A stretch of 64,000 nucleotides of DNA from Escherichia phage LF82-1: sequence record PV648359, one strand, 5' to 3'. Position 1 is the stretch's first letter; each line of letters opens with the position of its first letter. Positions 2,791-62,499 of the stretch are shown here, piece by piece. Both the position numbers and the translations under genes were made by a program. The notes below the pieces were generated by a model. It was not told the origin of the DNA. It saw only the letters and a program-made list of their open reading frames with translations, and did no database searches.

Positions 2791-2856
2791 TTTATTTCTC
2801 CAAATTAGTATTTGTTTGATAGGTCTATAATATCATGTTTGAAGCAAAAGTAAACT
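2781..2856. repeat. direct repeat copy 1 (promoter + RBS + start region), partner at 3099..3177
   Basis: About 75 bp nearly identical between the two loci (ttagacattttatttctccaa...gataggtctataatatcatgtttgaagca..gtaaac). Confidence 0.6.
2818..2856 (-). promoter_or_regulatory. T4-type early promoter (minus-strand GTTTAC -35, 17-nt spacer, TATTAT -10, conserved AGACCTATC downstream) for motA
   Basis: Plus-strand motif GATAGGTCTATAATATCAT...GTAAAC; about 30 nt upstream of motA start. Confidence 0.6.
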
Positions 2857-2892
2857 TTATTTTGGGCTCTTTTTCAAAAGCCCTGGTAAAAT

Positions 2893-3108
2893 TTACAAAC
2901 TCATTTCTTTAATAAGGCTAATAAGTTTTGCCTTTTTAGAACGAAGCTTTTCTAAATGATGTCCATTTGAACCGCGAACCACTAAAGAATTGATTTCAAC
3001 TTCTAAGAAATTTAATTCTTCAACAAGTGCTTTACGGAGAGCATTCATACCAGGTTTAACTTTACCGAAACGAGTAGTTGTGTTTTGGGTTAATTTCATT
3101 TTAGACAT
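2893..3108 (-). CDS. hypothetical protein (motA.1 position)
   Basis: 71 aa; 5' region (promoter, RBS, MSK start) is a near copy of the motA 5' region. Confidence 0.5.
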   Translation of the reverse strand: MSKMKLTQNTTTRFGKVKPGMNALRKALVEELNFLEVEINSLVVRGSNGHHLEKLRSKKAKLISLIKEMSL

Positions 3109-3177
3109 TTTATTTCTCCAATTTGGTTGTTTTGTTTTGATAGGTCTATAATATCATGTTTGAAGCACATGTAAACT
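3099..3177. repeat. direct repeat copy 2
   Basis: See partner at 2781..2856. Confidence 0.6.
3139..3177 (-). promoter_or_regulatory. T4-type early promoter for ORF 2893..3108
   Basis: Near-identical copy of the motA promoter cassette. Confidence 0.6.
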
Positions 3178-3185
3178 GTTTTGTG

Positions 3186-3220
3186 AGGAAAAAAATGCAC
3201 AAAAGGGAGCTTCGGCTCCC
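3186..3220 (-). terminator. intrinsic terminator (GGGAGC-UUCG-GCUCCC plus U-run) after gene 52
   Basis: GC stem with cgaa/ttcg tetraloop followed on minus strand by TTTTGTGCATTTTTTT. Confidence 0.6.
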
Positions 3221-3296
3221 TAATCATGTTTGTCCAACCAATACAGCCAAATCACTAGTGCAGCTATTGCACCGAGAAATCCTAAGGCTAGGGCAC

Positions 3297-4622
3297 TCAT
3301 AGCGCCTCCAAGTCTTTAGTGTACTCAGTAACAACATCAGTGGACTTCCAATACTCATTTTCTTCTTTCTTAGCTTTAGCTTCTTCTGCTAGTTTACGTG
3401 CTTCATCGGAAGTGATATGGAAGATGTTAAGACCTACCAATTTATCGATATGTTCTTTATACATTTCGATTTGTGCTAGCTCTTCAGTCAAAGCTTTACG
3501 AGTCTTGCCTTGAATCACAATTTCGCCACTGATAACTTTTTTGATGAAGTGTGCCTTAGCAAAAGCCAGTTTAAATGCTTTTTCAGATTCAATGATTTTG
3601 TTATCAATACGTTTCTGAACGTAAGTCTTACGGACTTCAACAAAATCTTTGATTAAGTCCACTACGTTATCGTAGACCGTTAATTTACCCTTTTCATTAA
3701 TCACTGTGATGTTTTGTGAACGACGTTCGATGAGACTAAAATCTTTCATGATTTTTTCATGACGTAGCTCTTCATCATCAGGAAGCGAGTACTCTTTACG
3801 GAACTTCACCTTAAACCCAAAACCGTGTTCACCACAATCATCTTCCCATGAGATTAGACCTTTGTCTTCCAACGGGTCAAGAACCTTACTCACATACGTT
3901 TCACGGTCGAATTTATATGGGATTTCAGTTATCTGCATTTGAGTACGAGATGTGAACTTGTATGTTCCGTGAATCTCATAACGCCCATCAACTTCATGCA
4001 CTTCACCACGGAATTCTGGGAATTCAACTTTTGGCTTAGTGACATTTTTACCTTGAAGAGCTTGTAATACAGCCTTTTTGACTGATTTAAAACTATGAGG
4101 CAGAATATTTGTTGCGTAACCGGTTGCAATACCAGAGACGCCATTCAAAAGAACTGTCGGAATAATAGGAAGATAGAATTTTGGTGGAACGTGTTCTTTA
4201 TCTTCATGAGCTGGAGCATATTCAGTATCTTTATATACGTTATAGAAATTTTTGCTTACACGAGCAAAAATATAACGAGATGCTGCAGCTTTTTGGACTG
4301 TTCGAGAACCAAAGTTGCCTTGACCATCTAGTAATGGATAGTTGTTATTCCATGTGTTAGCCATCAATGCTCCTGCATCTTGTGCAGAAGATTCGCCGTG
4401 ATGATAACCTAAATCTGCAACACCGCCTGCAATTGATGCAAGTTTATGAAATTTTTCTTTATTACCACGAGCCAAATCTAACGCACGATGAACCACAAAA
4501 CGTTGAACCGGCTTAAATCCATCAATCATGTTTGGGATTGCACGGTTTTCAACGGTGTACATCGCATATGCTAAGGCTTCGTTATCAATAATACTTTTTA
4601 GATTACGAGAATTCAATTGCAT
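3297..4622 (-). CDS. 52: DNA topoisomerase II medium subunit (GyrA-like, gp52)
   Basis: 441 aa (T4 gp52 about 442 aa); strongly resembles T4 gp52 by recall; synteny motA-52-ndd. Confidence 0.88.
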   Translation of the reverse strand: MQLNSRNLKSIIDNEALAYAMYTVENRAIPNMIDGFKPVQRFVVHRALDLARGNKEKFHKLASIAGGVADLGYHHGESSAQDAGALMANTWNNNYPLLDGQGNFGSRTVQKAAASRYIFARVSKNFYNVYKDTEYAPAHEDKEHVPPKFYLPIIPTVLLNGVSGIATGYATNILPHSFKSVKKAVLQALQGKNVTKPKVEFPEFRGEVHEVDGRYEIHGTYKFTSRTQMQITEIPYKFDRETYVSKVLDPLEDKGLISWEDDCGEHGFGFKVKFRKEYSLPDDEELRHEKIMKDFSLIERRSQNITVINEKGKLTVYDNVVDLIKDFVEVRKTYVQKRIDNKIIESEKAFKLAFAKAHFIKKVISGEIVIQGKTRKALTEELAQIEMYKEHIDKLVGLNIFHITSDEARKLAEEAKAKKEENEYWKSTDVVTEYTKDLEAL

Positions 4623-4626
4623 ATTT

Positions 4627-60437: not shown

Positions 60438-60965
60438 TTATGCGTGAACCGTCTTTAAACGTTCTTCAAATTTCCGAAGAGTACTAATACGTTCTGCTTT
60501 CTGTTTTGTATAGTTTGCAATACGTTCTGAAGTGAGAGCGTATCGTTCGTTTACTGTTTCTTTCATGAAGTCAGGGATTTCACGAGAAGCTTTAATTTCA
60601 TCAAACTTGTCGAGTACTGCCTGGTCTTCAGCGATTAAATTTTCGTACATCTCGATATCTTTCTTGATAAACTCGATATCTTCCTGGGTTACTTTGGATA
60701 AACGAGACGCTTTATCCTTTTTGTACTGCTCGTTAGTTTCACGAGACCAGAATAATGTACGTTTTTTGTTAGTGTTTTTGTAGACTTCCACAATTCCAAC
60801 TGAATCGATGATAACAATCCAATTCCAGCGAGATTTGAAAATCTGACCTCCGTCCACGGTAATCTCGTTATCATAAGCAACGTCATTAAAGAACTTGCTC
60901 TGTGCTTCAGATTTAAATTTACCGTCGTTATAATTTACCAGGTTGAAAATATCTTTAGCGTTCAT
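60438..60965 (-). CDS. hypothetical protein
   Basis: 175 aa; GGAGG RBS; own early promoter. Confidence 0.5.
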   Translation of the reverse strand: MNAKDIFNLVNYNDGKFKSEAQSKFFNDVAYDNEITVDGGQIFKSRWNWIVIIDSVGIVEVYKNTNKKRTLFWSRETNEQYKKDKASRLSKVTQEDIEFIKKDIEMYENLIAEDQAVLDKFDEIKASREIPDFMKETVNERYALTSERIANYTKQKAERISTLRKFEERLKTVHA

Positions 60966-60983
60966 GTTTTACCTCCAGTAGTT

Positions 60984-61022
60984 GATAGGTCTATAATAAC
61001 ACAACCATAGACCTTGTAAACA
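60984..61022 (-). promoter_or_regulatory. early promoter with stem-loop for ORF 60438..60965
   Basis: GATAGGTCTATAATAACACAACCATAGACCTTGTAAAC; IR AGGTCTAT/ATAGACCT. Confidence 0.55.
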
Positions 61023-61023
61023 A

Positions 61024-61311
61024 CTAAAAGAAACTTTTTTCAGTATTTTTTCCACTGAACCAAACCGACTTCGGGGTTTTCTGTAACTTTTCAGATTTAA
61101 GTTTCTCTTCCTGTTCTTTCTTATATACACTCTTGTCGTACTGGAGCATCTCTATGGCATTCTTTTGCAAACGATCTAAGGTAATTAAGGCTTTAGTTTT
61201 TCCTTTCAAGGAAGAGTCCTGGCGAACCTCCTCGCTATATTGCATTGTAGAACTAACCATACGATGAGCATAGAGTTCGACTGCGGCTTTAATTTTTTGC
61301 ATAAAATCCAT
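61024..61311 (-). CDS. hypothetical protein
   Basis: 95 aa ORF. Confidence 0.4.
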   Translation of the reverse strand: MDFMQKIKAAVELYAHRMVSSTMQYSEEVRQDSSLKGKTKALITLDRLQKNAIEMLQYDKSVYKKEQEEKLKSEKLQKTPKSVWFSGKNTEKSFF

Positions 61312-61449
61312 AACATATCCTCTTTGATTTGTACATCATTATTTTTAAATATTTCTATGCCCTCAGTAGGTTCCTGGTGTCCTTCTTTGAGGTAAGCCAT
61401 ATGATTATTCATCTTTATGGCTTTTGTTACCTCAGGACTTCCTGTAAGC

Positions 61450-62442
61450 TTATTTCAGTAAAGTTACTTCAGAGATTTCCTCCCAACCATCTTTATCAGT
61501 TGAAATAAAATCTGCCACATAAAGAGCCGTACGTAATGATACATTGCGAAGACGAGACACGTTAGCCTTCATCCAGGACAATGCTTTGTACGTTTCAGCA
61601 TTAGTCAAGCCACGTTTCTGCATCATGTCAGTAGATAATATTACATCTTCAACTCGAACCATAATCTCTTCATTAGAGTGTACTCCAAGGTCGAGATACA
61701 CTGAACGAGATACTAAAGCTTGAAGGTGCGGAGCAAGTTTCGAACCGCGTTCTAACTCTTTATCGATATCAACGTTTGTAATGAAAACAATAGTACCTTC
61801 AAACTCAAATTCTTTATCGATACCCTTATCATCAAGATAAGATGATGCAGTGCTCCAGCAAACTTTGCGTTTATCATCAGTATCTAATGCTGCTTTAAGA
61901 AGGTTCAAGATATCTATATCCGAGAATACATCAACATCGTCGATTAAGAGAACGCTGTCTGCATCACGGTTGAGCCAAAGTTGTTCGTAAAGGCCAATAC
62001 CAGAGATTTTACCATTAATGCTTTTGTATTTGATGAAACCATTATCATTAGCATTATTAAGCGCTTTATCCAGAGAATACGTCTTACCAATACCAGCTGC
62101 ACCTGAAATAATGAGTGAACGAATTTTGCCATCGATAATGCCATTCGTCATCATGTTCATTACTTTAAAGCGTTTGTTGATACGAGTTTTCATATCTTCA
62201 GTGCTTTCAACAACTGCAACTGGTGTCGTCTCAACTCCTTCCATTACGATGTCTGATTTGAAGACCCATACTCCACGTTCAGAACCATCAATCATAACGA
62301 AAATTTTACCGTCACCTAAGTGGGAACATTCAGGATTAAGCTTTGCTGGGAACCATGTCTTTGTGGCAACATAAGAACCGGAGATTTCATTATTACGATA
62401 GATACCTTTTTTGATTTGAACGTTGAACATTTTATTCTCCAA
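61450..62442 (-). CDS. P-loop NTPase (AAA-like) with N-terminal extra domain
   Basis: 330 aa; Walker A ISGAAGIGKTY, Walker B VLLIDDVD; own early promoter. Confidence 0.5.
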   Translation of the reverse strand: MENKMFNVQIKKGIYRNNEISGSYVATKTWFPAKLNPECSHLGDGKIFVMIDGSERGVWVFKSDIVMEGVETTPVAVVESTEDMKTRINKRFKVMNMMTNGIIDGKIRSLIISGAAGIGKTYSLDKALNNANDNGFIKYKSINGKISGIGLYEQLWLNRDADSVLLIDDVDVFSDIDILNLLKAALDTDDKRKVCWSTASSYLDDKGIDKEFEFEGTIVFITNVDIDKELERGSKLAPHLQALVSRSVYLDLGVHSNEEIMVRVEDVILSTDMMQKRGLTNAETYKALSWMKANVSRLRNVSLRTALYVADFISTDKDGWEEISEVTLLK

Positions 62443-62460
62443 ATTTACTCATTTCGTTTT

Positions 62461-62499
62461 GATAGGTCTATAATAACATATCCTAAAAACATGTACACT
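62461..62499 (-). promoter_or_regulatory. T4-type early promoter for ATPase ORF 61450..62442
   Basis: GATAGGTCTATAATAACATATCC...GTACAC. Confidence 0.55.

Follow-up and report, generated by a model that had tools for sequence, protein, structure and literature searches.

Repeated early-promoter cassettes, some with probable RNA stems, in the early region of an RB69-like Escherichia phage

Background

What are the short repeats that recur between the genes of Escherichia phage LF82-1? A stretch of 64,000 nucleotides (nt) of its DNA (sequence record PV648359; hereafter the window) carries a dispersed family of elements that an earlier note, made from the sequence letters, had described as near-identical early promoter cassettes, many with the -10 element embedded in a stem-loop, resembling the promoter early stem-loop (PeSL) elements of T4-type phages. 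Our analysis confirms this observation and supports its interpretation, which was in some respects overstated. The repeated motif very probably represents the sigma-70-dependent early promoters of an RB69-like phage of the T4 family, arranged in cassettes that recombine and on which RNA stems are superimposed. The promoter and PeSL family is already known, and its positions have been predicted in RB69.

Results and discussion

A strand-specific family of promoter cassettes

The core of the motif is a 19-mer, GATAGGTCTATAATATCAT, which we read on the plus strand; promoters and genes are read on the minus strand. The whole window holds three exact copies and nine with three or fewer mismatches (at 2818, 3139, 6221, 14850, 20108, 28177, 48810, 60984 and 62461), all on one strand, where shuffled sequences lead one to expect 0.05 matches. 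Allowing five mismatches yields 18 sites, enough for the 14 or more originally reported, but only about nine can be called near-identical. Sixteen of the 18 are intergenic, as had been described, and the other two (13344 and 53730) fall within coding sequence. In eight of the nine core copies GTTTAC, GTGTAC or ATGTAC stands 17–18 nt 5' of the -10 element on the minus strand. The complement of this -35 element begins on the plus strand 13–14 nt past the end of the 19-mer and about 20 nt past TATAAT, which makes the distance of about 20 nt first given for it approximately right.

Scanning the window with a two-block weight matrix trained on its own sites (cut-off 12 bits; strong class at least 22 bits) returned 28 sites on the minus strand, 23 of them strong, and none on the plus strand, confirming a strand-specific family. 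The wider family has about 24–26 members. One cassette, at 322-360 (38.6 bits), lies outside the interval 2818-62499 that had been given as the full extent, and the scan found no site between 28.2 and 49.7 kb, the block of replication genes. About 25 of the roughly 113 genes are preceded by a cassette of their own, which does not bear out the suggestion that cassettes flank most accessory open reading frames (ORFs).

On the minus strand the order of elements is an A/T-rich tract, GTTTAC, 17–18 nt mostly ending in TGn, TAnnAT and AGACCTATCAA. A ribosome site of the GGAG or GAGG type and an ATG follow 15–40 nt past AGACCTATCAA, or 22–50 nt downstream of the sites, and cassette sites keep a fixed distance to both. 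Among 22 strong sites, the -35 element is GTTTAC in 17 and GTGTAC or ATGTAC in five, TGn is present in 17, the spacer counted from GTTTAC is 17 or 18 nt long, and the seventh base after the -10 element is A in 20. The 11 nt upstream of the -35 element show a modest enrichment (74% A+T and 40% A, versus 63% and 33% in the background). A generic sigma-70 scan places the cassettes at the top, as TTTACA-16/17-TAnnAT.

A cassette would accordingly consist of an A/T-rich, UP-like stretch, a -35 element GTTTAC (TTTACA in the Escherichia coli register), a spacer of 16–17 base pairs (bp) mostly ending in TGn, and a -10 element TAnnAT, followed by a lineage-specific discriminator and start region, AGACCT-A-TCAA. 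Transcription probably starts at the A of cTATC, which would place the hexamer at -12 to -7. A short leader, a GGAG-type ribosome site and an ATG would complete the unit. All of these cassettes point the same way as the genes, and host RNA polymerase would start transcription from them right after infection.

By its gene content, the window covers the early and middle arm familiar from genomes of the T4 type: the minus strand carries almost all of the genes, in a run of asiA, motA, gene 52, ndd, denB, rIIB, rIIA, gene 39, dexA, dda, srd and modA/B that continues through genes 41, 43, 45, 46, 47 and 55 to the nrdC region. Escherichia phage LF82-2 is 100% identical over window bases 2000-12000. 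HX01, classified as a Mosigvirus (RB69 group), is among the relatives with about 97% identity, and T4 is only about 70–80% identical, with gene order conserved. In GenBank, some 150 Mosigvirus records give a match of at least 95%.

Early promoters of T4-type phages combine UP, -35, TGn and -10 elements with additional conserved positions (Hinton 2010; PMC2988021), and 58 early promoters, with C preferred at -3 to -1, have been predicted in RB69 (Nolan et al. 2006; PMC1524935); the T4 early-promoter features in our comparison are taken from these two papers. The minus-strand reading proposed in the earlier note, in which a -35 element GTTTAC is followed by a spacer, a -10 element and AGACCTATC, matches this T4-type arrangement. 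The list of early promoter (Pe) coordinates in RB69 agrees with the window cassettes in position and in the 17- or 18-nt class of the spacer, with the entries marked as '1 bp del' corresponding to the 17-nt spacers of the window. When compared directly with RB69, the cassettes show one difference per 51 nt at Pe:165022, three at Pe:165283 and none at Pe:165795. Cassettes are positionally conserved in RB69, HX01 and mar005p1, and T4 has the same promoter architecture in the same gene-order slots.

The likeness to the T4 and RB69 early promoters thus extends to the UP-like A/T tract, GTTTAC, TGn, TAnnAT and the conserved positions of the start region, including the RB69 preference for C at -3 to -1, as well as to sense orientation, location 5' of early genes and a lack of sites in the replication-gene core. 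Nothing substantive sets the cassettes apart from these promoters; LF82-2 is a separate isolate, and comparison with RB69, HX01 or mar005p1 reveals gain, loss or degradation of a few cassettes. The use of the RB69/T4 early-promoter set by LF82-2 is confirmed, and as a promoter family the cassettes hold nothing new. They are of use for annotation and engineering in this phage group, and they mark sites at which small accessory genes have been acquired or lost. The consensus of the discriminator differs between lineages (AGACCTATC in the window and JS10, ACAACTATC in T4), which suggests concerted evolution, or sequence exchange, among the cassettes of a genome.

The cassettes of the window and the structures associated with them are as follows.

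322-360, minus strand: cassette 5' of the asiA homologue (24-296), 38.6 bits, GTTTAC-18-TACTAT; outside the interval first described
2818-2855, minus strand: exact-core cassette 5' of motA (2158-2790); of the two copies of a 321-bp direct repeat unit, the downstream one
3139-3176, minus strand: exact-core cassette 5' of ORF 2893-3108; the other, upstream copy of this 321-bp unit
3205-3220, minus strand: GC-rich hairpin followed by a T-run, of the intrinsic terminator type, directly 5' of the cassette ending at 3176
5448-5486, minus strand: cassette 5' of ndd, -35 element TTGTAC; RB69 Pe:165022
5450-5473, minus strand: hairpin GAGAGC/GCTCTC of the ndd cassette, with the -10 element TATAAT (5462) in the loop
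5709-5747, minus strand: cassette 5' of ndd.1; hairpin 5709-5736 holds the -10 element (5723); RB69 Pe:165283
6221-6259, minus strand: cassette 5' of ORF 5940-6203; hairpin 6223-6246 holds the -10 element (6235); RB69 Pe:165795
14850-14888, minus strand: cassette 5' of cef; hairpin 14854-14873, GGTCTAT/ATAGACC, holds the -10 element (14864)
15417-15467, minus strand: cassette 5' of ORF 14888-15412; anti-Shine-Dalgarno spacer; weak -10 stem near 15444
16966-17004, minus strand: cassette 3' of dexA, in the gene-order slot of the T4 promoter near 8.2 kb; spacer AACCAAGGATGGTTGGAG; weak stem near 16980
20108-20145, minus strand: exact-core cassette 5' of srd (19-mer, weight matrix)
20848-20886, minus strand: cassette 5' of an ADP-ribosylase gene (20220-20828) (weight matrix)
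21486-21523, minus strand: cassette 5' of an ADP-ribosylase gene (20886-21467) (weight matrix)
22981-23053, minus strand: cassette 22981-23019 with terminator hairpin 23036-23053 and its T-run just upstream (weight matrix, folding)
26863-26901, minus strand: cassette 5' of sp; imperfect -10 hairpin 26867-26886 (-10 element at 26877) with one T.T mismatch
27174-27212, minus strand: cassette 5' of imm (weight matrix)
27604-27642, minus strand: cassette 5' of ORF 27216-27584; 203-bp insertion directly 5' in sister phages
28177-28238, minus strand: cassette 28177-28215 with terminator hairpin 28223-28238 (19-mer, weight matrix, folding)
48810-48828, minus strand: core copy lacking a -35 element, 5' of the gp55 gene, with perfect TATAAT and AGACCTAT
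49713-49747, minus strand: second cassette with a GAGAGC/GCTCTC hairpin, 49716-49737 (-10 element at 49727)
51133-51170, minus strand: cassette, 33.8 bits
55643-55681, minus strand: cassette kept at the same place in T4 (47452) (T4 comparison, weight matrix)
58322-58360, minus strand: cassette 5' of ORF 57352-58302 (weight matrix, repeat families)
59342-59380, minus strand: cassette 5' of ORF 58365-59324 (weight matrix, repeat families)
60984-61021, minus strand: cassette 5' of ORF 60438-60965; hairpin 60987-61014, GGTCTAT/ATAGACC, with a larger loop (-10 element at 60998)
62461-62542, minus strand: cassette 62461-62498 with terminator-like hairpin 62529-62542 upstream (19-mer, weight matrix, folding)

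Relationship to PeSL elements and gene shuffling

The PeSL elements of phages RB49 and phi1 have a stem-loop that commonly lies between the -35 and -10 elements or over the -10 element, and G-T pairs are drawn in their stems (Arbiol et al. 2010; PMC2839356). The T-even elements were called analogues, not homologues, in that work, and a consensus of TTTACW-N17-TAYWAT was later given for T4/PST in a study that also covers nt-1/KVP40 (Comeau et al. 2014; PMC4122927). The window cassettes fit this consensus, and a Shine-Dalgarno site and start codon stand at the 3' end of the cassette unit, as in PeSL. Like PeSL, they are composite intergenic modules made up of an A/T-rich region, an early promoter, a Shine-Dalgarno site and an ATG, to which some copies add a stem-loop, either over the -10 element or as a terminator just upstream. 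They are enriched in variable regions, and two copies enclose at least one gene that is missing from sister phages. With the T4/PST consensus, the stems overlapping the -10 element and one pair of cassettes bearing a recombination signature, the description 'PeSL-like' holds. However, the cassettes are not homologous to the PeSL of RB49 and phi1, which have a TTGACA -35 element and G-run/C-run stems, in contrast to the GTTTAC and the mixed or A/T-rich stems found here. Further differences from PeSL are that most window cassettes are stemless, that the -10 stems are A/T-richer and without U-runs, and that only one insertion or deletion (indel) has a clean cassette-to-cassette junction.

This indel lies between the cassettes at 2818 and 3139, which are 321 bp apart, flank ORF 2893-3108 and have up to 78 nt in common, a stretch covering promoter and leader as far as ATGTCTAAA. 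The whole arrangement is present in 75 phage-collection records, and many other Mosigviruses give two-piece matches over about 580 instead of 901 bp, making them about 320 bp shorter. In mar005p1, the one sister phage aligned at this place, a single cassette is joined directly to motA and the junction falls within the shared leader, ...GGAGAAATAAAATGTCTAAA. Many sister phages lack precisely this ORF, in agreement with the shuffling model, and the indel is, on comparison of the sequences, the signature expected from recombination between cassettes.

Elsewhere, the comparison of cassette-flanked genes between relatives gave a mixed picture, in which some indels adjoin a cassette but several do not. 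Relative to HX01 and mar005p1, an indel of +203 bp at 27665 adjoins a cassette. At 28194-28209 both phages carry an additional 447 bp, with the breakpoint in the cassette spacer, and the extra segment of HX01 consists of an ORF and a second cassette. Indels at 13442, 44003, 55007-57325 and 62552 do not adjoin one. We considered the last of these (+312 bp) as a cassette-bounded segment and rejected it, as an ORF is inserted upstream of a terminator and cassette, with no second cassette.

Since the cassettes are stretches of 40–80 bp of dispersed, near-identical DNA, they could act as sites of homologous recombination at which small genes are added or removed between copies. This is the mechanism that we infer from the arrangement of the repeats.

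Hairpins around the -10 element

Six cassettes have a stable hairpin with the -10 element in its loop (5450-5473, 5709-5736, 6223-6246, 14854-14873, 49716-49737 and 60987-61014). Their energies range from -9.5 to -13.7 kcal/mol when 31 nt are folded and reach -15.6 kcal/mol in longer folds, with z-scores of -2.5 to -5.8. Two or three weaker hairpins are found at 26867-26886, near 16980 and near 15444. The inverted repeats that had been reported to bracket the -10 element in many copies are therefore real, but they belong to a minority, six to nine of about 26 cassettes.

Five of the six stable hairpins, as well as the weak one at 15444, share a single stem register: the first base past the hexamer is paired with the one 5 nt ahead of the hexamer, and further pairs follow outward. 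The exception is 60987-61014, whose 5' arm is displaced upstream by about 6 nt and whose loop is larger. Five or more Watson-Crick pairs occur in this register at five of 25 promoters in the window and at none when the register is shifted within -4 to +4 (permutation P = 0.0002).

The same register recurs in a wider set of 155 distinct promoter instances, in which promoter-like sites were picked without reference to the stem columns. The set was drawn from the window, T4, HX01, mar005p1, Klebsiella Jiaodavirus, Salmonella Moonvirus, Enterobacter Karamvirus, JS10 and T4-like contigs of the IMG/VR database. Relatives were taken from GenBank phage records; protein queries of IMG/VR gave two loci for MotA and seven for the Dda alignment. 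A degenerate promoter pattern run against IMG/VR returned mostly unrelated contigs among the matches listed, from which 13 loci on contigs longer than 150 kb were kept as likely T4-like, the remaining loci serving as a background set. The stem is present at shift 0 in 17 of the 155 instances, compared with none or one at any other shift, and the sequences of the stems are wholly different from case to case.

Pairing holds in 90% of the cells of 26 distinct hairpin promoters, versus 29–50% with a slid partner, and compensatory changes on both sides are seen in seven of the nine pairs. Orthologues chosen by homology keep the pairing and provide an unbiased version of this covariation test. In the cassette marked by 'aaactctt...agagTATAAT', the stem is GAGAGC/GCTCTC in the window, GGGACC/GGTCCC in T4 and GAGAATC/GGTTCTC in JS10; SP18 has two copies, with GGGAGC/GTTCCC and GGGGTC/GACCCC. 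The stem of the ndd.1 promoter has a U-A pair in the window, U.G in RB69 and two wobbles in NHEP10. Cells within the stems that are not Watson-Crick pairs comprise about nine G.U and one A.C, and this bias suggests that selection acts on the sense strand in single-stranded form, most simply as RNA.

Both arms of the hairpins lie upstream of the predicted start. Because the promoter spacer, which precedes the local start, holds the 5' arm, only transcripts arriving from upstream could form the hairpin. In such read-through RNA it would most likely act as an insulating, 3'-end-protecting or attenuating stem. A classical GC hairpin with a T-run is present immediately 5' of the -35 element at four cassettes (3205-3220, 23036-23053, 28223-28238 and 62529-62542). 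Cassettes with a -10 hairpin have no classical upstream terminator, and those with a terminator have no -10 hairpin. Counting six -10 hairpins, four upstream terminators and one anti-Shine-Dalgarno helix, a stem-loop lies within or next to the promoter at about 11 of approximately 26 cassettes, and beyond these no significant stem was found. Rfam models at gathering scores gave no matches in the window.

It is possible, though doubtful, that the -10 hairpins are terminators or attenuators of upstream transcripts, the role proposed for the PeSL stem-loop. In RB49, the stem-loop of PeSL211/210 reduced the expression of a downstream lacZ gene comparably to the rrnB T1 terminator (PMC2839356), and the mutual exclusion of -10 hairpins and classical terminators in the window looks as if the two were alternatives. 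However, the -10 hairpins are followed by UAUCAAAACA and not by a U-run, and for this reason they are not canonical intrinsic terminators. Their stability is modest (-9.5 to -15.6 kcal/mol), true terminator-type hairpins with T-runs exist at other cassettes, and T4 relies on early transcripts running into downstream genes (PMC2988021).

Spacers complementary to ribosome sites

In the cassette preceding ORF 14888-15412, the spacer TTCTCCTCTGGTT (15449-15461) can pair without mismatch over 13 bp with AACCAGAGGAGAA (15417-15429) in the ribosome-site region downstream. The fold of 15417-15461 has an energy of -23.9 kcal/mol (z-score -5.1) and leaves the ribosome site fully paired. The predicted probability that this site is unpaired is 0.00 in read-through RNA, versus 0.71 in the local transcript beginning at the presumed start. 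Local transcripts would escape the masking because the pairing segment lies upstream of their start, and a spacer complementary to the Shine-Dalgarno site would in this way make only locally initiated transcripts translatable.

Duplexes between spacer and leader of -14 kcal/mol or stronger are predicted in 15 of 161 distinct promoter-leader pairs (9.3%), versus 1.2% when the partners are permuted and 0.2% when the spacers are shuffled. Examples of anti-Shine-Dalgarno spacers occur in HX01, JS10 and T4, and their variants show G.U wobbles. SP18 has a shorter complement of 7 bp between spacer and ribosome site. The T4 spacers complementary to their own ribosome sites belong to a promoter near 8.2 kb (~8180-8220), which, going by its name, is probably P8.1, and to the promoter 5' of ndd.4 (~166,780), with energies of -15.3 and -16.6 kcal/mol, respectively.

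Hairpins that sequester the translation initiation region in long transcripts have been described for the T4 genes e, soc, 49 and I-TevI (PMC3014915). As in those genes, the 5' arm of the helix at 15417-15461, the one window site of this design, lies upstream of the start of the internal promoter. In the four T4 genes, however, this promoter is a late one (late or middle for I-TevI), by which expression is delayed. The window cassette has an early-type promoter whose own spacer forms the 5' arm, which would restrict translation to local immediate-early RNA.

About 10% of the sampled T4-like early promoters have the fixed-register -10 hairpin, and another 9% or so have an anti-Shine-Dalgarno spacer. 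Stems overlapping the -10 element were already noted in the PeSL papers (PMC2839356, PMC4122927); we found no description in the literature of the fixed register, of the G.U-biased covariation or of the masking of a ribosome site by an early-promoter spacer. As judged from these sequence patterns, the -10 hairpins and the anti-Shine-Dalgarno spacers are a modest addition that suggests control by transcript origin. We propose only tentatively, and would sooner doubt than assert, that the promoter-embedded stems form a conserved RNA device by which T4-family phages distinguish read-through from locally initiated transcripts. If the stems are functional, expression of a gene would depend on which of many tandem promoters made the RNA, a simple and testable idea, and early genes would be added to the few in T4 (e, soc, 49 and I-TevI) whose control depends on where the transcript originated.

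Alternative explanations and points of doubt

The stems might instead act as DNA, in the shape of cruciforms or of single-strand hairpins, which would give rise to hot spots of recombination or present the -10 element in single-stranded form. The stems lie wholly upstream of the predicted start and would never be part of the local transcript, and the asymmetry in favor of the sense strand would also fit a hairpin in non-template-strand DNA, G.T being the most tolerated mismatch in DNA hairpins. We nevertheless consider this explanation rather unlikely. A cruciform needs both strands to be paired, and each G.T in the sense strand is a C.A mismatch in the opposite one (about nine G.U were found against one A.C). 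In addition, stems of 7–10 bp with loops of 6–8 nt are short for extrusion, the related pairing between spacer and Shine-Dalgarno site makes sense only in RNA, and the clearest crossover is in a leader and not in a stem.

Less probable still is that a dimeric DNA-binding protein, such as a factor that shuts off early promoters a few minutes into infection, uses the inverted repeats around the -10 element as operators, with AGACCTATC as the half-site. The mechanism of early-promoter shut-off in T4-type phages is not understood according to reviews (PMC2988021, PMC3014915), the repeats are placed exactly where a repressor would block open-complex formation, and the lineage-specific consensus of the discriminator is not set by the host polymerase that these phages share. 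However, pairing is kept while the stem changes completely (GGTCTAT, AGGACTA, GAGAGC, GGGACC, GGCC, AGGGCT, GACAAGACTA), which is the signature of base pairing and not of sequence-specific recognition by a protein. Most cassettes with AGACCTATC have no inverted copy of it, and the wobbles, being G.U and not A.C, are strand-asymmetric.

Chance similarity in AT-rich intergenic DNA, or recent duplication without function, can be dismissed: although the G+C content of the window is 35–39% and the generic sigma-70 scan gave no overall excess there (59 sites versus 65.7 in shuffles), this idea is already refuted by nine core matches against 0.05 expected and by the strand split of 28 to 0, and it fits neither the fixed distance to the ribosome site and ATG nor the conservation of positions in RB69, HX01 and mar005p1 and of architecture in T4.

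Several observations weigh against the reading of the family as recombining early-promoter cassettes with superimposed RNA stems. Promoter activity, early timing and the position of +1 are deduced from homology to the T4/RB69 consensus, and the RB69 promoters are themselves computational predictions. Of about ten indels relative to two sister phages, four or five touch a cassette and one has the repeat-junction signature. Cassettes fill, by a rough estimate, about half of the intergenic space, and viable indels end between genes, so that proximity alone is no proof of a causal role. As for the stems, the -10 hairpin is present in only about a quarter of the cassettes and is not a defining part of the family, it lacks the downstream U-run of a canonical intrinsic terminator, and the 26 sequences used for covariation were chosen for pairing. 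Masking of the ribosome site is not general among the window cassettes, where two or three of 22 fall below shuffled controls (Kolmogorov-Smirnov p = 0.72).

Further observations on cassettes and neighboring genes

The leaders of four cassettes contain RegB-type sites, GGAGAAATAAA or GGAGAACAAAA, at 2780-2800, 3100-3120, 28150-28170 and 62430-62450. They match the GGAGRAYARAA consensus of the RegB endoribonuclease (PMC3014915) and are expected for early genes. Because such a site is within the leader, a cassette brings an mRNA-inactivation site along.

The terminator at 3205-3220 reads GGAGC-CGAA-GCTCC, and in mar005p1 its loop is the reverse complement, TTCG. Between the two sequences the stem is kept and the tetraloop appears flipped. 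In the cassette at 49713-49747, the -35 element is degraded in the window (ACGCAC) and is GTGTAC in HX01; this may be a promoter that is decaying while its stem is kept. The core copy beside the gp55 gene (48810-48860) has an inverted copy, ATAGGTCT, 20 nt upstream. We rejected this core copy (48810) as a MotA-dependent middle promoter, since its TGCTTTA box is 23 nt from the -10 element versus 11–13 nt in the consensus.

Three cassettes (16966-17004, 58322-58360 and 59342-59380) have the identical 18-nt spacer AACCAAGGATGGTTGGAG, and degenerate copies lie at 16403-16452 and 40638-40662. The T4 promoters at 2458 and 50973 have CCACAAGGATGTGG at the corresponding place. The spacer AACCAAGGATGGTTGGAG may form a small hairpin (CCACA-AGGA-TGTGG).

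The block 31302-37851, whose genes are annotated as thymidylate kinase, peptidase, phosphoheptose isomerase and arabinose-5-phosphate isomerase, among others, has no T4 counterpart (T4 alignment gap 31203-38045). T4 has segA, b-gt, gene 42 and imm at this place, and the block may encode DNA sugar modification of the RB69 type. The large subunit of the topoisomerase (11702-13519) is a single ORF of 605 amino acids, in which T4 genes 60 and 39 are fused and which is without the 60.1/mobA segment that parts the two genes in T4. A 24-bp sequence, TCACCACGTTGTTCTTTAGGAGCC, is exactly duplicated in tandem at 21802-21849, inside a small ORF (21684-21872). The only annotated plus-strand gene of the otherwise all-minus early region is located at 23955-24152.

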